A program made the translations under genes and the position numbers. Shown piece after piece: positions 1-25,992 of a stretch of 37,789 nt of DNA (position 1 is the first letter of the stretch; each line of letters opens with the position of its first letter). Origin of the DNA: Eledone cirrhosa (Eukaryota); assembly GCA_964016885.1 (NCBI GenBank), contig CAXHJY010000062.1:1-37789 (forward strand), written 5' to 3'. The notes beneath the pieces are model-generated. The model was not told the origin of the DNA and ran no database searches. It was given only the letters and a program-made list of their open reading frames with translations.

Positions 1-5807
<5,807 letters not shown>

Positions 5808-5862
5808 ATGAAATATGAAATATGAAATCTAAGAATCCAAAGAACTGTTCAAAACATTATTG

Positions 5863-5909
5863 TGCTTACAGCTGTTTCCTCCAAACCGAGGTTTGGATTC
5901 TTCGGAGCA
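5863..5909 (-). ncRNA. Minimal type I hammerhead ribozyme at the PLE 3' end
   Basis: Minus strand reads TGCT-CCGAAGA-a-TCCAAAC ctcg GTTTGGA-g-GAAA-CAGCTG-TA-AGCA: stem I TGCT/AGCA, 7-bp stem II, palindromic stem III, GUA triplet, U4C core variant. Confidence 0.85.
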
Positions 5910-7335
5910 ATTTATTAATGCAATGGACAGTTATATGACCTCCTTTTCAGCCGAGAGACATACCAATACATATTCAAACATTGATACATATTCAAACATT
6001 GTGGGTCAACATTCATTACAGAATTTAGAGTGGCAGTACACACTTCGAGATTACATTTATATTAATAGGTACAATCAAAAAAATCAAAGATATAGGTTAA
6101 AGTACAACATGAAGATAAGTGGTTATATAGTGCAAATGTTATATGTGTGGCACGCATGTGCGTCTTGTTTATATAGTGTGGCAGAGAGATATGTGTGGTA
6201 GAGGCACTTAGGTAGGTAAATAAGAGTGTTAGGTTGGTAGATCTGGTGGCAAAGTCTTTATATGATTGATATAGTCTGTGTGTGGAGAAATATTATAAGC
6301 ATTAAAGATAGTGCAAGCATTAAAAGTGTTATAAGTATTGGAGATGCACAGCGCAGGGATGTCAAGTAATTCATGTACTTCGGTATTTTCATGGTCAAGG
6401 GAGTGTATATTTCGATTATATGCCTTTCACATAATCCACGACAATCCAGTTAGAGATCGTAGTCTGGTGCTCTTTAGTTCGATACAGGTGGTTGTTACGT
6501 TTCGAGAGACGCCATTGAATACCGGAAGTGTGTGTGTGGCTAAGGGGAGTTAATGCATGCGGGGAGGTAACTCTGGGGTTTCTATATCTAGCCATTAAAA
6601 TGTGTCTCAATATAGACCCTAAATTCTATGGTGAGGTGCACCTTCCAAGAGAGACTTTTAAAGCATAAAGTGTACTAACTATAGAGTAGTTTAACTAAAT
6701 TATGCTGAAGGTGATCATATTATTATTAGGGTGGATTAACCCATCTCAAGGTGCTACAAATGGAAATTATAGATGATGAGCGAGGATTCTAAATTAATGA
6801 TCTCTATGGTTGTAGTCTGCTCATATGACCAGGCGCGGTGATTGCAGGATTGCTTCAGGACCCAATGATCTCTGGTAAGATCCGGGTCATCGCTTGCTAC
6901 ATTGGGTGTCGAAAGATAATCATCCCCAGGCAGGCCAAAGGTCAAGCCGCAGTCCTCGCGACCCCTCTCTGACCGTCAGATCATCCATATACGTACAACC
7001 CGCACGGCAGTTGCATTGCATTCACTCACTGCGCTCAGCGGCCTGGTCCTACTGGTCAACAGCGCTACTCGATTAAATCATTTTACATCTGTCTAAGGAA
7101 GGTGTTTCCTCTGCCCAACACCATCCAACCGATCAATTCATGCTCAAATTACCCTTAGAGCGGCGTAGTGCCGTCCAGGTGGGTGGATGTTGTCACACCT
7201 GCCGTAGAGGTATAAATGGGTATTTTCCCTGCGAAGGGTTCCAGAGGGATGTCGTTGTTTGTGTTATAATGGATCAGCTAGTGTTGGGTATGTAGTATAG
7301 GGTGTGTCTCTGGTGTTTGATGCTAGATGTGGTGT

Positions 7336-9034
7336 TAGGTTCCAGTCCGACATTGCCATATATGGGGCTTAAAGTTTTGGAAGGAATGTCTGAGGCGGTG
7401 CTGGCAAGTTGCAAACACCTCAGATTTTTGTTAAGTAGGTTACGGTTGGAGAAGATAATATTGTGTGTCTCTAGTATACAGAGGTTACAGAATTTATTAG
7501 GTGGTTTGTACGAGGTCGCGCTGCCTATCACTTCCCATTTGAGTGTGTATGGTTTATTTTTAGATTTTAGATAGTGAATGTAGCTAGAAAGTGAGGTGGA
7601 GTTGGCTAGGCTGTGCTTTTTGAACGAGTGGATGTGCGAGTTATATCTAATTTTGAAGCAGTTAGAAGTGGAGCCTACATAGGTTTCTGAAGAGTTATTA
7701 GTCGTGACTGTGCATGAGTATATGACATCCTTGGTTAGGCATTTTTTATCTAAAGGGCAGGTTCTATTAGCTCTACAGTTACAATTATTCTGTGCGTTAG
7801 TCCGCTGGTTATAATGCAATGCGGAAGTCTGTGTGGTGGGTATAGGATTTTGGGTGTTCAGGTTGACAACCCTGGTGTTATTACTTATACTAGTGTTATT
7901 TCTATTGTTACTGCCGTTGCTATTGTTGCTTGCTACAGTGGTATTTAGAGGGTTTGCATCCCGTTGCGATTTTGTTTGTTGGAAGTAAGAACTAATTTTA
8001 CTATTATTGCTGCTAGCTATGTGGTATGCTAAGTTAGGCGTCGTGGAGTATGAGATTTTAATGGTGTTTTTGTTTAAGAGGTTGTGGTACTTGTGTCCTA
8101 GAGGGAAGTTTTTATCTAGTAGTGAGAAGAAAGCCCTAGGTATGTTGGTGGAGACATTTAGGTTGAAAGGAGGGTTGAAAAATGTATTATTTCTTCTTCT
8201 ATTTTTGCTTTTAGTGTTTGGTGTGTTGCTTCCTCCTAAGGCCTCACAGTAGTTTCCATGGTAATGGTTACTTCCGGTGGCACCCTCCGCTTTGGTGTAC
8301 TTGTGGTTGCTATTCCTATTATTAGATTTCCTCATGGACATGTTGTGCGAGATGATGTTGTAGCTATGTGTTTTCTTAGGTAGGAACTCAATTTCTATAT
8401 TATGGCCGGAGCTAGCTAATGCTTGATTGTAATATTGTGAGTTTTTGCTAAATATGTTTGCGTCATAGGACAGACTAGAGATTCTATTGGACACCCCCTT
8501 AGAGATAGAGTTTAATATTGATCTAGGGTGATTAGACTTGGTATCTACGTAAATAAGTTTCTCATTAGGCTTATGGAAGGGTGTATATATTTTTGAGTCT
8601 AGGTATAGTGTGGCGTCTAGGAAGTTAACATTTTTAGTGTTTTTGTCCATGGTGATACTAAGGTTAAAGTTTTTGAATGTCTTATGCAGTTGTTTTCTAG
8701 TTCTTTCTATATTAAATTTCTTATATTCTATGAGTAGAAGTGCATCATCGCGGTACAAACCACCGTTGAGGTAAGGGAGGTCTTTATGGATTTCATTGAG
8801 GAGGTATAGGCCGACCAAATCAGTGACCTGCGCCGAGTCACTAGATCCCATGGTTATGTCGAAGTTGTTGTGCGTATCCTTGCGTGTCCATAGTTGGTCC
8901 TCGAAGGTGATTATGGTTTTACGGGCCGCAAGGATGACATCAACCTGGGCTCTAGTCAGGTCGCTATTGGTCATGGCCATGATAAGTGCCTTATTTAATA
9001 GGATAGGGGAAATAGAGGTGTAGTATGAATTGAT
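7336..9034 (-). pseudogene. PLE reverse transcriptase / GIY-YIG endonuclease ORF, 5'-truncated, with a 1-nt frameshift near the C-terminus
   Basis: ORF 7274..8980(-) contains [16 protein letters not shown] (RT motif B'), GLYRDDAL (catalytic), [60 protein letters not shown] and CNLCILE. The frame stays open upstream as [17 protein letters not shown] (motif A remnant). Adding one A at 7425-7429 restores [15 protein letters not shown]..stop. Confidence 0.9.
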
Positions 9035-9036
9035 AT

Positions 9037-15600: not shown

Positions 15601-15713
15601 CCAGTTCTAAACACAAGTAGGTCGGCTTCAATTCCTCTAATTAGATGCAATTCGGTTCAAAATGAACCTAACAATATATGGTACCGACATCATTCTATAT
15701 ATATATAAATATA

Positions 15714-16005
15714 GGTAGAATGATGTCGGTACCATATATTGTTAGTGTATGTACACTCCATATTCTTCGGAGTTTCTGGCTTGTATCTGCCGATATTACC
15801 TCTTGTTGTTTTGATTGCCCTGGTGAGTCCTTAATAGGACGAAACATTGTCGGCTAATAAAAACTTTTGATGTATTAAAGGATTCTTTGTTTTACTCTCT
15901 TAATTTGTTGGCTCTGTTTAACTGCATTGAGCTATACCTTTTACTGTCATTTCTATAATACGAAGAGGGTGTTTGACTCAAACACGCTCCAGTATTCTAA
16001 TCCTT
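15714..16005 (+). mobile_element. Solo PLE terminal-repeat-like element carrying a hammerhead
   Basis: Lies between TA runs; HHR followed by AATAAA (15856-15861) and a tail (ttttga..ggattctt) resembling the 3' tail of the large PLE. Confidence 0.7.
15817..15854 (+). ncRNA. Minimal type I hammerhead ribozyme (A6G core variant)
   Basis: GCC-CTGGTGA-GTCCT taat AGGAC-GAAA-CATTG-TC-GGC. Confidence 0.75.
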
Positions 16006-16136
16006 ATATATAAATATATATATATATATAACTTAGGAGGTGAGTTTTATTGTAGTACAATAAAGCAATGCAGATATCGGATAAGAAGCACTCTACAGTT
16101 TGTAGGACTGGAGTATACATAATATATATGTCTTCT

Positions 16137-16207
16137 TGTTTTATCTGCTGAAAACACAAATATTATTGCATGATGATATTTGTTTTTGAAATGCGCATAA
16201 TAAAATA
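16137..16207 (+). ncRNA. Type I hammerhead, AT-rich family copy 1 (A6C core mutation)
   Basis: TGTTTTAT-CTGCTGA-AAAcACAAATATTATT gcat GATGATATTTGTtTTT-GAAA-TGCGCA-TA-ATAAAATA; within TA-flanked island 16032-16236. Confidence 0.75.
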
Positions 16208-16236
16208 CATGGAACTCTTTTAACCATCTTTTGTTC

Positions 16237-16248
16237 TTATATATTATA

Positions 16249-16324
<76 letters not shown>

Positions 16325-16338
16325 TATATGTATATATA

Positions 16339-16369
<31 letters not shown>

Positions 16370-16449
16370 GTGTGTATATATATATATATACATATTTATG
16401 TGTATATATATATATATATATATACATATATATATGTATATATATATAC

Positions 16450-16528
<79 letters not shown>

Positions 16529-16768
16529 ACGAAAGAAATGAGGTAAGGAACCAGGTGGACCATAACGCACCAAAGTACTCAATACTTGGGGTAGTAGAGT
16601 AGGTAATAGGAACGAGTAGGACCCCGACGACTGAGCTCAAGCCGTTTCGAAACGGCTTGAGCTCAGTCGTCGTGGTCCTCATCGTTCCTATATATGTATA
16701 TATATATATATATATATATACATATGTATACGTATACATATATATATATATAAATACATATGTATACG

Positions 16769-16800
<32 letters not shown>

Positions 16801-16817
16801 AATACATATGTATACGT

Positions 16818-16858
<41 letters not shown>

Positions 16859-17043
16859 CATATGTATACGTATACATATATTTAAATACACATATGTATA
16901 CGTATATATATATATATACAAATATGTATACGTATATATATATATATGTGTGTATGTATATATGTAGATATGTAGATATGTATAAACATTTATGTAATGT
17001 AGAGATGTGTGTGTGGTATATATGTATATATATATATATATAT
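16237..17043. repeat. (TA)n arrays interrupted by the 16529-16690 insert
   Basis: Direct reading. Confidence 0.9.
16529..16690 (-). mobile_element. PLE 3'-terminal remnant with a 42-bp-arm palindrome (inverted duplication)
   Basis: 16607-16648 and 16649-16690 are reverse complements with 3 mismatches, centred on tttc|gaaa; each arm begins GAAA-CGGCT-tgagctc-AGTCG-TC (hammerhead stem III half). Confidence 0.75.
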
Positions 17044-17123
17044 ACCAAACCAACTTTTTTAAATGGAAGTTGTTCAAAATTCTATGGTACGTCAAATTTA
17101 TTTATAAAACTGCTTATATATTG

Positions 17124-17189
17124 TATTTTATCTGAAGAAGGCATGCCATATTTTTAATATGGTATCCCTGAAATATGTATAATGAAATA
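17124..17189 (+). ncRNA. Type I hammerhead, AT-rich family copy 2 (intact core)
   Basis: TATTTTAT-CTGAAGA-AGGcATGCCATATT ttt AATATGGTATcCCT-GAAA-TATGTA-TA-ATGAAATA; within TA-flanked island 17045-17230. Confidence 0.85.
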
Positions 17190-17230
17190 AATATGGTTTT
17201 ATAAATATAGTTTCCATTTGTTTAATATCG

Positions 17231-17264
<34 letters not shown>

Positions 17265-17278
17265 AGTACATTATATGC

Positions 17279-17334
<56 letters not shown>

Positions 17335-17397
17335 ACAGAATCAAGTGTAAGGATTATCAAATAGAAAGTCATTATCACGTCTGACCTGTATTTTTCC

Positions 17398-17805
17398 GTT
17401 TATTTTATATTTATTTTATATTTATTTTATATTTATTTTATATTTATTTTATATTTATTTTATATTTATTTTATATTTATTTTATATTTATTTTATATTT
17501 ATTTTATATTTATTTTATGTTTAGTTTATATTTATTTTATATTTATTTTATATTTATTTTATATTTATTTTGTATTTATTTTATATTTATTTTATATTTA
17601 TTTTATATTTATTTTATATTTATTTTATATTTATTTTATATTTATTTTATATTTATTTTATATTTATTTTATGTTTATTTTATGTTTAGTTTATGTTTAG
17701 TTTATATTTAGTTTATATTTATTTTATATTTATTTTATATTTATTTTATATTTATTTTATATTTATTTTATATTTATTTTATATTTATTTTTATATCTAT
17801 TTTAA
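17398..17805. repeat. 11-bp AT-rich minisatellite (TTTTATATTTA)n
   Basis: Direct reading. Confidence 0.95.
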
Positions 17806-17917
17806 ATCTATTTATGTATTTATTTATATATTTGTTTGTTGATTTGTTTGTTTGATTTTAATACTATATTGCAAATGTTTCATAGTTTTCCAGGATCGAA
17901 TGCCCCATATCTTCTGT

Positions 17918-18360
17918 ATACACATATACAGACAGATATACACATACACGCACAAACACAGACATAAACATACACACACAGATATACATACACACATACA
18001 CACACAAATACAGACACACACATATATACATACACACATACACACGCACACCCACACACACACACATACACACATACACACACACATACACACACATACA
18101 CTAACATACACACGTACACACATACACAGACACACACATACACATACACACACACATACAGACTCAAACACACTCATACATACAGAGACTCACACACATA
18201 CATATACACATATGGTAGGTTCTCTTCTCCAACACACACACACACACACACATACAAACTCGCACAAACACACCCACACAAACATACACACACATACACA
18301 CCCACACAAACATACACACACATACACATACACACCCACACAAGCATACACACACATACA

Positions 18361-18399
<39 letters not shown>

Positions 18400-18657
18400 A
18401 GCCACACACGCGCCCACACAAACATACACACACACACACACGCAGACAAATATACACACACATACTAACCCACACAAAGACACGCACGCAAACACATATA
18501 CACGCACACAAAGACACGCACACAAACACACAGACACACACGCACACCCACACAAACATACCCACACATACACACACACACATACACACACATACTCATA
18601 CATACACATACTCACCCACACACCCATACACACATGGTGGGTCCCACTTCTCCAACA
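17918..18657. repeat. Degenerate (CA)n tract with a duplicated 26-bp marker
   Basis: catatggtaggttctcttctccaaca (~18209) and cacatggtgggtcccacttctccaaca (~18631). Confidence 0.9.
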
Positions 18658-18727
18658 TGTCATTAATGTGCAGTATTCTGCTCTCCCATACAATATGTCG
18701 CTGTCTTGAAGCCATAGACAGCATTGC

Positions 18728-18888
18728 ATGGCGTTGTGTGGCGTTGTGTGGCGTTGTGTGGTGTTGTGTGGTGTTGTGTGGTGCTGTGTGGTGTTGTGCG
18801 GTGTTGTGTGGTGCTGTGTGGTGTTGTGTGGCGTTGTGTGGTGTTGTGTGGTGTTGTGTGGTGTTGTGTGGTGCTGTGTGGTGTTGCG
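18728..18888. repeat. 10-bp minisatellite (GTGTTGTGTG)n
   Basis: About 16 units with gcg/gtgc variants. Confidence 0.95.
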
Positions 18889-18913
18889 CGTCATCTCATT
18901 AGATCTTATTGAA

Positions 18914-19103
18914 ATATATATATATATAATGTATATATATATATATATATGTATATATATAATATATATATATATATATACTGTACATGTAGATAGATAC
19001 ATACATACATACATATATACATACATATATATACATATATATACATATATATATTTGTAAATAGATAGATACATACATACATATATATACATATATATAT
19101 ATG

Positions 19104-19134
<31 letters not shown>

Positions 19135-19230
19135 CTGTACATGTAGATAGATACATACATACATATATACATACATATATATACATATATATACATATAT
19201 ATATATGTAAATAGATAGATACTTACACAC

Positions 19231-19283
<53 letters not shown>

Positions 19284-19302
19284 ATAGATATAGATATATC
19301 TG

Positions 19303-19388
<86 letters not shown>

Positions 19389-19608
19389 CTGGGGATAGAA
19401 CATAGTAAAATCATAAACTAAGCGAAATCAATATGAAAAATAACAATAAATAAATAAACAAATAAATAAATAAATAAATGAGTAAATAAATGAATGAATA
19501 AATAAATAAATAGACAAGTGATTGAATGAGGTAAAATTTGTCTTTGATGAGTATTTTCTGAATATTCTGAAAGTGGAACAAAAAAAAAATGGAAGGAAAA
19601 ACAGATAG

Positions 19609-19646
<38 letters not shown>

Positions 19647-19830
19647 AAGGCAGACAGACAGACTGGAGAAAAGGGGACAAGGGAAGAGATGGACGATAAT
19701 AAAAGACGATGATGATGATGAAAGAAAAGAAAAAAGGGAAGTCTATGGAAAAGTAGGAGGAAGAAGAGAAGGAAAGAAAAAAGAGAATACAGAAGAAAAA
19801 GAAGATGAAGAAAGACAAACAAACAAAACA
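18914..19830. repeat. Mixed TA/TACA, (GT)n, (AAAT)n, (GATA)n and A-rich simple repeats
   Basis: Direct reading; actgtacatgtagatagatacatacatac is duplicated at ~18980 and ~19134; (GT)n at 19301-19385. Confidence 0.9.
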
Positions 19831-20014
19831 ACAAATTAAAAATATTAACACTAAAATATTAAAGAAATTGGTTTGCAATTTTTGTTGTATTGATATATCA
19901 CAATTGAGTAACTTGGATGTTCTTCCTTTGTACACTAACTGTTCAATTAACGGCCTATGATTAATTCTGATCAAATCATACTGCTCTGGGATGTATCTAT
20001 TAAAGTGTATCAAA

Positions 20015-21075
20015 GAGAGTAAACCTACCTATACAGGGAAAAACAAAATAAGTGCAAAATGAAATAAAAATCTATTGGGATGTCTCTACAAAGATGTGTC
20101 GAAAATAGCAAAGCTACCTATACAGGGAAAAACTAAACAGGTGTAAAATAAAATAAGAAGTTACAGGGATGTCTTTACAAAAATATGTTGAAGAGAGAAA
20201 GCCTACCTACACAAGGGAAAAAATATCAAATAAAAAGTTACCAAGATGTTTACCAAACCTGTCTATACTCGGAATATCAAAAGTTACCGAAAAGTTGGCA
20301 TGTACATGGAAAAAGTAAACAGGTGTAAAATGAAATACAAAACAGGAATTGAAATGAGATAAAAAGTTATCGGGATGTCTACTAAAATGTCTGGAAACAG
20401 GAAACATTACCTAAACACGGTAAAACATATAAAATAAAAAGTTGCCGACATGTTTACTAAAGTATGTGAAAGTCAACAAACCTATCTTCATACAGGAAAG
20501 GCAAAACAAGTGTAAAATGAAATAAAAAAGCTACACGGATGTCTCTACAGAAATGTGTATACCTACACACGGAAAAACAAAACGGATGTTAAATAAAATA
20601 AAAAAGTTACAGGGATGTCTTTACAAAAGTGTGTTGAAGATAGTAAACCTCTCTACGAGGAATATCAAAGGTTACCGAAATGTCTGTACAAAAGTGTGTT
20701 GAGGACAACAAACCTACCTACACACGAAAATACAAAACATGAATTGAATGAGATAAAAAGTTATTAAAGTGTGTGGAAACAGGAAACATTACCTAAACAC
20801 GGTAAAACAAAATAAGTGTAAAATGAAATAAAGATCTATTGGGTTGTCTCTATAAAAATGTGTTGAAGATAGCAAACCTACCTACAGTAGGAAGAACATA
20901 TTAAATAAAAAGTTACCAAGATGTTCACCAAACATCTCTACACCGAAATGTCTGTACATGGAAAAACCAAACAGGTGTAAAATAAAATAAAATGATACAG
21001 GGATGTCTTTACAAAAACTAGGTTGAAGAGAGCAAACCTACCTATACAGGAAAATACAAAACAGGAATTGAATGA
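20015..21075. repeat. Degenerate AT-rich satellite, ~85-90-bp unit
   Basis: Recurring aaacctacctatacagg.aaaa..aaacaggtgtaaaatgaaataaaaagtta..gggatgtct.tacaaaa..gtgttgaaga. Confidence 0.85.
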
Positions 21076-21076
21076 G

Positions 21077-21304
21077 TGTATAGAAATAGATAGGAGGGTG
21101 AAAACCTTCAACTGAGCTAGGCCAGAACCTGCCACCCCTTTCAACCTTCTCCGTGTATAGGGAGAGAGATATGAGGGTGAAAACCTTCACTTGAGCCAGG
21201 CCAGAACCTGCCGGCCCTTTCAACCTTCTCCGTGTATAGGGAGAGAGATAGGAGGGTGATACCCTTCACTTGAGCCAGGCCAGAACCTGCCGGCCCTTTC
21301 AACC
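21077..21304. repeat. 79-bp tandem repeat, ~2.9 copies
   Basis: gagggtga..accttca at 21094, 21173 and 21252. Confidence 0.92.
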
Positions 21305-21349
21305 CACTACATATACTGCATATACACACTTACATAGAACACAGAATAT

Positions 21350-21598
21350 TCACACACACATACACACACACATACATACACACATACATGTACCCAGGCA
21401 CACATGCACCCAGACACGCACATACACACACATACACACATTCAGACTCACATACACACACAGACACACACACACACATACTCGCACACAGGCACACACA
21501 CGCACTCAGACACATATACACCCAGATGCACACACACACACACTCAGACAGACACAGACACTCGCATATACACACTCAGACACACACGCGCACTCGCA

Positions 21599-21649
<51 letters not shown>

Positions 21650-21807
21650 AGACACAAATACACCCAGATACGCACACACACATACACACAAACACATATA
21701 CATACACCCAGTCATACACGCACACACACACACACGCAGGCACACGCACACGCACATACATAACCCAGACACACACATACACCCGGACACGCACAGATAT
21801 ACACACA

Positions 21808-21850
<43 letters not shown>

Positions 21851-21900
21851 CACACATACACCCGGACACGCACACACACAAACAAACACACACACACACT
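21350..21900. repeat. Degenerate (CA)n tract
   Basis: Direct reading. Confidence 0.93.
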
Positions 21901-22424
21901 TATGCTAAACATGTCGCTACGATTCGGAAATCCGAGCAATATCGTAATGGACATTGAAAGTGTGATATTCCTAAATACGACACTTGAAAAGTTTACAGTA
22001 ATTTATAGTTAAACTGAAATTTAGTAGAGACTCTATATTTATACTAGATAGAATGATGCAAATTATTATTCTTCACTTGATTTTCTCTCGTCTGAAGGCA
22101 TAATAGATTTAGTAGATTTAATAGATTTCAAGTGTCTTTCGTGTGTAAAATTGCTGTGGTTAGCACAAGACAAAATGGAGGTTATCCAGCATAGTACCAA
22201 CTCATTGATGGTTCATTGACTTCAGCGCACAAATAACCTTCGTGATATGTAACGCCGGCATTGGTGTCGGTGTAAGTGCCGGCGTTGCTGGGCTGTGTGG
22301 TTAACAAGTACGCTCTACAACCTCATGGCTTTGTTTTCAGTCCATCTAAGAAATTTCGTTTACAGGAACTATGCAGAATCCTGTCGTATATATGTATGTA
22401 CCATGGGCCCAGCACTATGTGTCA

Positions 22425-22570
22425 ATAATTGTCACAAGTGTAGTGTTTGTACCAGAGTTTTCAAGTCGTTGGCTGGACTAAAAAGTCACACTCGTTCAGC
22501 GCATTGGTAGGGGTTCTCCTACATGGATATAAAGTAGTGGCCGTACTCGAAAACGAGTTGGCAGCCACCA

Positions 22571-22572
<2 letters not shown>
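22425..22572 (+). mobile_element. 3' end of an RTE-like non-LTR retrotransposon (C-terminal C2H2 finger plus 3' UTR)
   Basis: HKCSVCTRVFKSLAGLKSHTRSAHW* (stop 22508-22510), then a short UTR with a ctcg aaaa cgag hairpin, ending directly in (AT)n. Confidence 0.65.
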
Positions 22573-22615
<43 letters not shown>

Positions 22616-22688
22616 GGAGCTTCCAACAGACATGGTCACATTCTTTTAAGGGTATGTCAATATTTGTTTATAAAACTGATCTATATTA

Positions 22689-22753
22689 TATTTTATCTGA
22701 TGAAAGCGCACCATAATTTGCTTTGGTGTCCTTGAAATATGTATAATGAAATA
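22689..22753 (+). ncRNA. Type I hammerhead, AT-rich family copy 3 (intact core)
   Basis: TATTTTAT-CTGATGA-AAGcGCACCA taatttgctt TGGTGTcCTT-GAAA-TATGTA-TA-ATGAAATA; island 22613-22796 is homologous to 17045-17230. Confidence 0.85.
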
Positions 22754-22791
22754 AATATGGTTTCATAAACATAGTTTCCATTTATTAATAT

Positions 22792-22839
<48 letters not shown>

Positions 22840-23117
22840 TACGAACTTATATTATATACGTATTTGTGGTCACACATACACTGATATGCTTGCCCTCATA
22901 TATGTACTTACGCACACATTTTCACTATACACATGCATTTGTACATACACACACATGTACATTTATGAGTGAATATACACACATTTATACACATACCCTA
23001 ACTATATTACCTTTTTTTTTATATATATCTCTTGCATTACTTTTTTTTTTTTTTTTTTTTTCCCGTTAAACTTTTGCCTTTCTTGAGGAGATTTTTCAAA
23101 TATTTCACTATGTTTTA

Positions 23118-23201
23118 AATTGCCTTGTCCGATGAACGAATGGGGACGTTTTTTGTATTCATCTTATTCGGGAAAATGTCTTATTTGGTAATGAGGTAAT
23201 T
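23118..23201 (+). ncRNA. Decayed type I hammerhead (CCGAUGA core)
   Basis: AATTGCCTTGT-CCGATGA-a-CGAATGGG..CTTATTCG-g-GAAA..GTA-ATGAGGTAATT; stem I is 11 bp with G-U pairs, stem III is disrupted; tail (agctctgtaacttacatagagcactct) recurs inverted at ~25612-25640. Confidence 0.55.
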
Positions 23202-23301
23202 ATATTGTATTGTTTATTATACATTAAATTTAGCTCTGTAACTTACATAGAGCACTCTTCATCCCTATGACTTTTTCAATTTTCAATGGAAACTTCAATA
23301 C

Positions 23302-23365
<64 letters not shown>

Positions 23366-23534
23366 GAGTTAAACAAGATTCAATGAGTACATCAAAGAAT
23401 GAGTTTTACGGTAGATTGAAAGCACTCTACAGAAAGATATTTTCCAGAGTTATTAATATTAAATTGAAATATTAATCACTACCTTCATTAAATCTTAACC
23501 ATTTAACATGTCAGGGTATGTCATGTATCATTTT

Positions 23535-23600
23535 ATTTTATCTGATGAGGACGTACTATTGAACTTGATTCAAGTACCTCTGAAATATGTATAATAAAAT
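23535..23600 (+). ncRNA. Type I hammerhead, AT-rich family copy 4 (intact core)
   Basis: ATTTTAT-CTGATGA-GGAcGTACT..AGTACcTCT-GAAA-TATGTA-TA-ATAAAAT; island 23362-23650. Confidence 0.82.
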
Positions 23601-23819
23601 TTTATTGATCACAAGAAGATCTATTTTATTAATATTTGAATTTAATATTATATATATATATACATATATATATAAACAATGAGTTATATATTTTATTGAT
23701 AAGTATTCAACAGAGTTATTTTCATAACAGTTATTAAGCACTCTACAGTTAAATTTTATTAGACGTATTATAATATTAACAATAGTAATAAATGGAAAAT
23801 ATCACTACTTCAAATATTA

Positions 23820-23881
23820 TATTTTATCTGATGAAAGCATACTATAATTTAATATCCTTGAAATATACATATAACAAAATA
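23820..23881 (+). ncRNA. Type I hammerhead, AT-rich family copy 5
   Basis: TATTTTAT-CTGATGA-AAGcATACTA..TAATATcCTT-GAAA-TATACATA-TA-ACAAAATA (one stem I mismatch); island 23673-23932. Confidence 0.72.
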
Positions 23882-23921
23882 AATATGATGCTATAGTGAT
23901 ATTTTCCATTTATTACTATTT

Positions 23922-23982
<61 letters not shown>

Positions 23983-25822: not shown

Positions 25823-25880
25823 AATAAGCATAAGGAAAGTATATACTTTCAGACGTTCAACCATCAGGCAGGTAGGTATA

Positions 25881-25921
25881 CGTTGCTGATGATATCTAAT
25901 AAACTTGAAACTAGTACAGCG
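25881..25921 (+). ncRNA. Minimal type I hammerhead with degenerate stem II
   Basis: CGTTG-CTGATGA-tatctaataaactt-GAAA-CTAG-TA-CAGCG; palindromic stem III, GUA triplet; in TA-flanked island 25818-25996. Confidence 0.68.
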
Positions 25922-25992
25922 TTCCTTTGTCAGTGTTGAACAAATGAGCAACGATGGTTGCTAGACACTGTACGGCTTAATTCGGGATGTTT

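Follow-up and report, generated by a model that had tools for sequence, protein, structure and literature searches.

Hammerhead-shaped 3' ends of Hydra-clade Penelope-like elements in Eledone cirrhosa and the conservation of an unpaired C in stem II

The window discussed here is a stretch of 37,789 nucleotides of Eledone cirrhosa DNA (contig CAXHJY010000062.1 of GenBank assembly GCA_964016885.1, positions 1 to 37,789 of the forward strand), rich in microsatellites and with SINE-like repeats of octopus-like appearance, that carries five hammerhead ribozyme motifs within positions 16,137 to 23,881 (Table 1). Each motif is the hammerhead-shaped 3' end of a Hydra-clade Penelope-like retrotransposon (Penelope-like element, PLE), the five representing five different subfamilies, and to judge from their sequences the RNAs are likely to be self-cutting. 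An earlier note on this DNA had treated the motifs as one five-copy family, and this must be replaced by the separate 3' ends of five subfamilies drawn from about 100,000 hammerhead copies, in at least 17 subfamilies, in the 3.0 Gb of genome that was searched. In all 17 of the subfamilies compared the fourth nucleotide on one side of stem II is a C (C10.4) that is left unpaired, and we consider it very probable from the comparisons given below that selection has acted on this base. The window copies themselves are separate, immobile, 5'-truncated remnants, and any function of the mismatch was exercised in their source elements.

With regard to the identity of the elements, window copies 2-5 match different subfamilies at 88-93% and copy 1 can be placed through its tail at 96%, and the subfamilies of copies 1, 2 and 4 are found downstream of PLE open reading frames (ORFs). 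The full-length element in L039 (L numbers denote fetched genomic loci) has a period of 4,091 nt and is arranged as hammerhead, tail, ORF, 1.6-kb 3' untranslated region (UTR) and hammerhead, the two hammerheads lying at 683 and 4774 on either side of the ORF, so that both terminal repeats carry one as in dimer-type PLE hammerheads. The single ORF encodes a reverse transcriptase (RT), a CxCX5C linker, a C-terminal GIY-YIG domain and a CxxC..E..N..CxH motif, and there is no CCHH motif; the linker as CNCRNKSKC and the last motif as CDLC..EE..N..CCRH recur in L039, L037 and L057. RWR and DKS in L039, and DKT in L046, are near and not identical to the published RWK and DKT, and we have counted them as agreeing. 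The 3' end lies 50-55 nt past the cut and is followed by (TA)n, with an optional tail of ~90 nt and inverted 5' pieces. This anatomy and the protein motifs of L039 place the family in the Hydra clade as defined in PMC8557442, although the unit exceeds the length of generally < 3 kb given there. The cysteine linker had led us to guess at the Neptune clade, which was dropped on that definition. Pfam gave only a weak GIY-YIG match on the PLE fragment of the window, and a tree of endonucleases alone was poorly resolved. A tandem retrozyme array is ruled out, as the five copies are separate insertions of five subfamilies and do not form a tandem series like that of non-LTR retrozymes, in which every non-coding unit of 200-400 nt bears a hammerhead. 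The association of hammerheads with Hydra-type elements is already known.

The exact pattern of the commonest form has 18,473 matches in the genome and none when reversed, and the motif is thus not due to chance. For the other two stem III classes exact patterns gave 22,487 and 1,348 matches (reversed control 0 each), and one wider pattern gave 88,794 with 13 for its control. There is also a second branch, with stem I of CUGC/GCAG, for which 17,916 matches against 3,539 in the control add ~14,000 copies.

The earlier note had read the stem II arms as differing in sequence and still pairing, and this is so in all five copies, which lie on the + strand where it had placed them: three pairs are followed by a mismatch, C.U in copy 1 and C.C in copies 2-5. 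The AUA cleavage triplet is likewise present in all five, and the two cuts that it predicted, in copies 2 and 3, were correctly placed. As the copies come from different subfamilies, the covariation among them reflects divergence between subfamilies and not change within a local array. For a wider view we aligned 29 representatives, comprising the 17 subfamily medoids and 12 of 13 deeper copies. Pairs 2, 3 and 6 of stem II are paired in all 29 with 12, 17 and 14 double changes, which bears out the suggestion that selection acted on the RNA fold, and pair 4 is unpaired in all 29, so that conservation of the mismatch also extends to the larger set. Double changes occur in 5 of 5 stem I pairs and in 6 of 7 stem II pairs. 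The covariation score is 0.671, against 0.311 +/- 0.019 for shuffled and at most 0.164 for slid alignments, for rows that were pre-filtered for pairing and with kinship inflating the shuffle test. With three helices, an open stem I and compensatory change the motifs have the form of type I hammerheads, and the CUGANGA, GAAA and UH core elements are intact in copies 2-5 and in the family consensus.

In 125 copies taken with no structure filter pair 4 is paired once, and the other eight pairs are paired in 103-122. We next collected 344 distinct copies on the condition that no fewer than 4 of the 5 neighbouring pairs and 3 of the 4 stem I pairs were formed, position 4 itself being left out of the filter, and removed the 54 chosen for a change at position 4; those chosen for A at 11.4 were kept, so that C.A is over-represented in the remaining 290. 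C is present at 10.4 in 280 of these 290 and pair 4 is paired in three. At the subfamily level C10.4 is the consensus in 17 of 17 and is never paired, its partner at 11.4 being C in 14, U in two and A in one, so that the partner has switched to U and to A in real subfamilies. Genome-wide, C10.4 has been lost from 3,720 of the 88,794 copies (4.2%), mostly to T, and G is found opposite it at 11.4 in 345 (0.39%). Both kinds of change are scattered over many subfamily backgrounds among the first 100 matches listed of each, and in none of the 17 subfamilies has either become the consensus. A opposite C10.4 is found in 3,249 copies, mostly of one real subfamily, and 525 copies of the second branch lack C10.4.

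It could be argued that the mismatch is neutral and was simply inherited from the ancestor of the radiation. The carriers do all come from a single radiation within one genome, change is rare at other positions too (11.7 has one or two changes), and the position tested was picked post hoc. However, on trees made from the flanks without stem II, at four clustering cut-offs that leave 26, 17, 16 and 15 subfamilies when those with fewer than 3 copies are set aside, C10.4 has no change at any cut-off, as against 1-8 for other stem II nucleotides (means 3.1-4.0; Poisson probability of zero, 0.018-0.046). When changes are divided into propagated and singleton, C10.4 has 0 and 5 and the 14 other stem nucleotides 74 and 52 (Fisher p = 0.014), and the zero compares with a mean of 5.3 propagated changes per other stem nucleotide (Poisson 0.005). 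Once inserted, copies mutate normally at this base, as the genome-wide figure shows, and a destabilising mismatch has remained open while each neighbouring pair was replaced. We regard neutral inheritance as decidedly improbable.

What C10.4 is selected for must be judged from the pattern of change. G appears to be shut out at 11.4 through its ability to pair with C10.4, and the identity of C10.4 itself would seem to matter beyond the mere breaking of the helix. In particular C to U accounts for about 60 of 100 C10.4-loss matches listed, and is the consensus of 0 of 17 subfamilies even though it keeps the mismatch in the C.C subfamilies. This one-sided identity argues for a base-specific contact over a plain break in the helix. 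The explanation that we prefer, and to which we would give no better than an even chance, is a dimeric PLE hammerhead in which C10.4 stays unpaired to serve as a base-specific contact, the element's RT-endonuclease being the likeliest partner. The same observations bear on the proposal that the mismatch is a brake or hinge, weakening the three core-proximal pairs of a long stem II so that slow cleavage spares full-length RNA for reverse transcription. Closing pair 4 would gain a predicted 5.3-6.7 kcal/mol and only 3 bp are left beside the core, the partner base varies (C, U, A), and in the Anolis element unprocessed RNA is the substrate for insertion (PMC11167929), all of which would suit a brake. 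Yet for a brake any mismatch should serve, and the failure of U to become established at 10.4 makes it unlikely in our estimation.

An RNA partner is a further alternative: C10.4 would touch stem I, some other RNA segment or a metal ion, in a tertiary contact by which cleavage at low Mg2+ is made faster. An invariant C with G excluded opposite is what would be expected of a contacting base, contacts between stems I and II are usual in fast hammerheads (PMC3088659), and the stem I pair 2.3-1.3 is pyrimidine-purine in 28 of the 29 representatives. However stem I is 4-5 bp in the second branch and 8-12 bp in the other, the stretch enclosed by the eighth pair of stem II varies from 4 to ~20 nt, only 12 of 17 subfamilies retain U1.7, and there is no invariant base in distal stem I or loop II. 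As stem I, loop II and U1.7 are all variable, a fixed partner in stem I is unlikely, and the stem I-stem II contact suggested in the earlier note is unsupported. A Schistosoma PLE hammerhead also had no hidden tertiary effect (legend to Fig. S6B, PMC4209133 supplement). We see the RNA contact as a minor possibility only. A pseudoknot of loop II with stem I, and pairing of C10.4 with G5, G8 or G12, were checked by eye and are not conserved. Nor do the motifs resemble the fast type I form with 6-bp stem I, 4-bp stem II and a contact between loops 1 and 2, as helix and loop lengths vary widely.

Two other traits on which a hammerhead subtype had been proposed do not survive. G10.1-C11.1 is indeed missing from all five window copies, which have A-U four times and G.U once, and it is present in 6 of the 17 subfamily consensuses, so that its absence is not a family trait; in File S2 of PMC8557442 it is found in 7 of 26 Hydra rows. 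Pairing is in register from 10.1, and the layout of dimer-type PLE hammerheads with an extra nucleotide at 9/10.1 followed by G10.1-C11.1 is not seen. Copies in L039, L024 and L040, of a subfamily ending TATCCCC, have A.C at 10.1/11.1 and could be redrawn with a bulged A followed by G10.1-C11.1, which is the standard PLE layout. The U/A stem I, said to be shared, does not extend to the second branch and largely coincides with an AAUAAA. The unpaired C at 10.4 is then the single trait left to define a subtype.

Of the 290 copies, 256 have an AAUAAA whose first base is 0-25 nt from nucleotide 17; windows of the same size gave 2 copies downstream and 3 upstream, and shuffled sequence gave 47.5. 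Several of the search patterns demanded TTTAT, which favours AAUAAA in the first branch; no such demand was made of the second branch, where it is present too. The offset differs among subfamilies (0, 5, 6, 7, 12, 13, 14), and AAUAAA thus behaves as a signal would, and we infer that it is used as a poly(A) signal. Offset 0 is the commonest in 9 of 17 subfamilies, and the predicted cut there usually splits AAUAAA. In the window AAUAAA is found at 17180-17195, 22744-22760 and 23593-23598.

Stem III is a self-complementary 8-mer in 17 of 17 subfamily consensuses (AUAUGUAU, AUAUAUAU, AUGCGCAU, AUACGUAU), in keeping with the short palindromic stem III of dimer-type PLE hammerheads. Its predicted energy is +4.7 kcal/mol as a monomer hairpin and -4.2 to -12.5 kcal/mol as a duplex. 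Given the palindrome, cleavage is likely to take place as a dimer, a known PLE trait, and dimeric action with low activity in vitro has been reported for PLE hammerheads whose helix III is small and palindromic (PMC4209133; PMC6765202). For monomers of 17124-17189 and 22689-22753, which the earlier note had put forward for kinetic study, poor cleavage is predicted with or without the mismatch because stem III is of the dimer type.

There is a precedent for assistance by protein, in that the Anolis PLE hammerhead cleaved only once the protein of the element was added (PMC11167929), and C10.4 is ~100 nt from the end of the element; these make the element's own protein the likeliest candidate for the partner of C10.4. 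One may go further and suppose that C10.4 is a docking mark by which the Hydra RT-endonuclease picks out its own RNA and switches on the dimeric hammerhead, with stem I hiding the poly(A) signal and the cut destroying it. This is speculative and we think it quite unlikely. If true, the ribozyme would act as a switch with three outcomes, polyadenylation, self-cleavage and read-through to the start of reverse transcription, under the control of the protein, and there would be a testable answer to the question of what PLE hammerheads are for.

Several points tell against a protein contact at C10.4. The protein is a partner that we infer by elimination, and an invariant base is unable to reveal a covarying one. 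Position 10.4 was chosen after the fact from five copies and the p values are modest (0.005-0.046), the subfamilies are related, and the tree is based on ~75 flanking nucleotides in short alignments. G10.4 makes up about 23 of 100 changed matches listed for the second branch, several of them as paired arms of one insertion, so that repaired RNAs can be copied at least once, and it is never a subfamily consensus there. We found no ORF tied to the second branch. A Hydra-type element at 5761-9036 (-) in the same window ends in a hammerhead with fully paired stem II, and the mismatch is therefore not required by all Hydra elements. Finally, insertion of the Anolis element in vitro did not need hammerhead cleavage (PMC11167929).

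With regard to the reach of the mismatch, carriers are found downstream of endonucleases that are 35-51% identical to that of L039, and a distant family in the same genome (stem III ACAUGUGU; L014, L389) also has C.U at pair 4. In 65 metagenome PLE loci from other animals there were 14 hammerhead-like motifs in 13 loci, none with a mismatch at pair 4 and all with stem II unbroken; only two of the 65 loci look Hydra-like, and for one of these the short contig has no hammerhead. The hammerhead at the 3' end of the 5761-9036 element (~5886-5935, minus strand) has core CCGAAGA (U4C), a 7-bp stem II and a palindromic stem III. U4C is also found in the cores of L008, L011, L026, L032, L066, L101 and L149 and is thus a family trait and not decay. 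A separate hammerhead family in L248, L260, L268 and L382-L384 has stem III ACAYRUGU, a basal U.U and a long irregular stem II.

In the case of the second branch, L300, L387, L389 and L283 share > 400 nt upstream of the hammerhead, in which CCAAT occurs once or twice; no link to an ORF was found within 1.5 kb. The shared sequence may be an extended UTR or else a non-autonomous element. An apparent link to the endonuclease of L288, which would have taken the trait down to ~29% protein identity, was rejected as the hammerhead unit there is inserted in the UTR of another element. A fixed 5' end for the branch was also dropped as a query artefact, as copies run for > 400 nt and their starts are scattered.

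The features of the window are collected in Table 1. Four motifs (cores at 16145, 17132, 22697 and 23542) came from a strict descriptor scanned on both strands, which copy 5 failed, and the fifth (core at 23828) from a looser pattern. Rfam Hammerhead_1 has no window match at gathering score, and none of the five motifs is among the 150 of 173 matches listed at E <= 10. The A6C change probably leaves the ribozyme of copy 1 weakened; in a natural hammerhead example with A6C kobs was < 0.1/min (PMC3088659).

Table 1. Hammerhead copies and associated PLE pieces in the window
Feature	Coordinates	Strand	Remarks
Inverted copy of optional 3' tail	16005..16126	-	Abuts 5' end of copy 1, a typical PLE junction; 96% identity over 123 nt to tail of L057
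Hammerhead copy 1, AAACACAA/TTGTTTTT subfamily	16137..16207	+	C.U 16155/16184; core CUGCUGA (A6C; family CUGAUGA); stem III palindrome AUGCGCAU; predicted cut after 16199
5'-truncated 3' terminal repeat around copy 2	17025..17238	+	Extended stem I; AAUAAA at +5 from cut; element end adjoins (TA)n; 91% identity to each terminal repeat of full-length element in L039
Hammerhead copy 2, AGGCATGC/GTATCCCT subfamily	17124..17189	+	Core intact; C.C 17142/17166; predicted cut after 17181
5'-truncated 3' terminal repeat around copy 3	22610..22798	+	Flanked by (TA)n runs; 93% identity to L046
Hammerhead copy 3, AAGCGCAC/GTGTCCTT subfamily	22689..22753	+	Core intact; C.C 22707/22730; predicted cut after 22745
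Inverted tail joined to 5' end of copy 4	23359..23475	-	Same stretch as inverted tails in L005, L017 and L020
Hammerhead copy 4, GGACGTAC/GTACCTCT subfamily	23535..23600	+	Core intact; G.U 10.1/11.1; C.C 23552/23578; predicted cut after 23593, inside an AAUAAA; 23472-23650 has 91-92% identity to L005 and L020
Hammerhead copy 5, decayed	23820..23881	+	C.C 23838/23856; predicted cut after 23873; A.C at second stem I pair; stem III imperfect and 2 nt longer; no stem II fold in prediction; 23812-23982 has 88% identity to L084

Some other features of the window may be recorded. A sixth hammerhead-like motif, of another family, lies at 15814-15858 (+) with G10.1-C11.1, a 4-bp stem II, a GUC site, an A6G core and AATAAA just downstream; Rfam Hammerhead_1 gives it E = 0.022, under the gathering score. 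At ~25872-25925 (+) there is a decayed copy of another common hammerhead family, with short stem II, a basal mismatch and stem III ACUAGU, that is present in at least 9 fetched loci. The word GGTAYGTCA is conserved 20-45 nt upstream of stem I (17086-17095, 22651-22659 and 23512-23522 in the window, and also in L010, L026 and L020), and many subfamilies also have ACTAYC further upstream. It may be either the base of a hairpin or a promoter word of CRE-like type. Two long perfect inverted repeats, at 16623-16677 and 15667-15746, are apparently inverted-end junctions of other repeats.

These findings bear on why PLEs carry slow, dimer-type hammerheads. The ~100,000 copies, belonging to 17 or more subfamilies, amount to a natural mutagenesis screen, in which one nucleotide outside the core is held as tightly as the core itself, and C10.4 is thus a precise target for mutation in looking for assistance by protein or a new tertiary contact. 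The position of AAUAAA in or near stem I suggests a coupling of ribozyme folding with 3'-end processing. We saw no sign of a host function for the present hammerheads. As the family is missed by Rfam, counts of hammerheads in such genomes will be far too low.

Turning to known systems, the closest likeness is to the hammerheads of Hydra-clade PLEs described in PMC8557442, including Hydra-1_Obim, which are also type I and near the 3' end of elements with C-terminal GIY-YIG and the CxCX5C linker, with (TA)n targets, inverted 5' pieces, a tail, a short stem III and G10.1-C11.1 often missing. They differ in having stem II given as a continuous helix of 3-7 bp, with a mismatch at pair 4 in 0 of 26 published rows, whereas the present family has 8-16 bp with C10.4 unpaired, and the element at ~4.1 kb is longer and has an alternating 8-mer palindrome for stem III. 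Three diagnostic words of the present family are absent from the PMC8557442 supplement, and we found no description of the family or of a conserved stem II mismatch there or in searches of the open full-text literature, a coverage that excludes subscription papers and figures.

The minimal and dimeric PLE hammerheads of PMC4209133 share location in terminal repeats, a long helix II, the palindrome at 15.2-16.2, thousands of dispersed truncated copies and low expected activity as monomers. The present family differs from them in lacking the extra nucleotide at 9/10.1 and in that G10.1-C11.1 is not conserved. By our own reading of Fig. S3 of that paper, 2 of 56 single examples have a mismatch at pair 4 (U.U in Clonorchis 2 and C.A in Strongylocentrotus 1), and its conservation is not remarked on in the text available; the hammerhead of D. 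virilis has a bulge in helix II (PMC4209133).

The Anolis Poseidon element PAc (PMC11167929) likewise has a terminal-repeat hammerhead upstream of two 3' ends, a main end and a tail. It belongs to another clade and its ORF starts inside stem II, as against ~240 nt downstream in L039, and the available text does not mention a conserved mismatch. Lastly, the non-LTR retrozymes of animals (PMC7229834; bioRxiv 10.64898/2026.07.22.740005) have type I hammerheads in high-copy repeats akin to PLE terminal repeats, but the window copies differ from these in that they are not tandem units, their subfamilies reach into coding elements, and the canonical contacts of loop 1 with loop 2 are missing.

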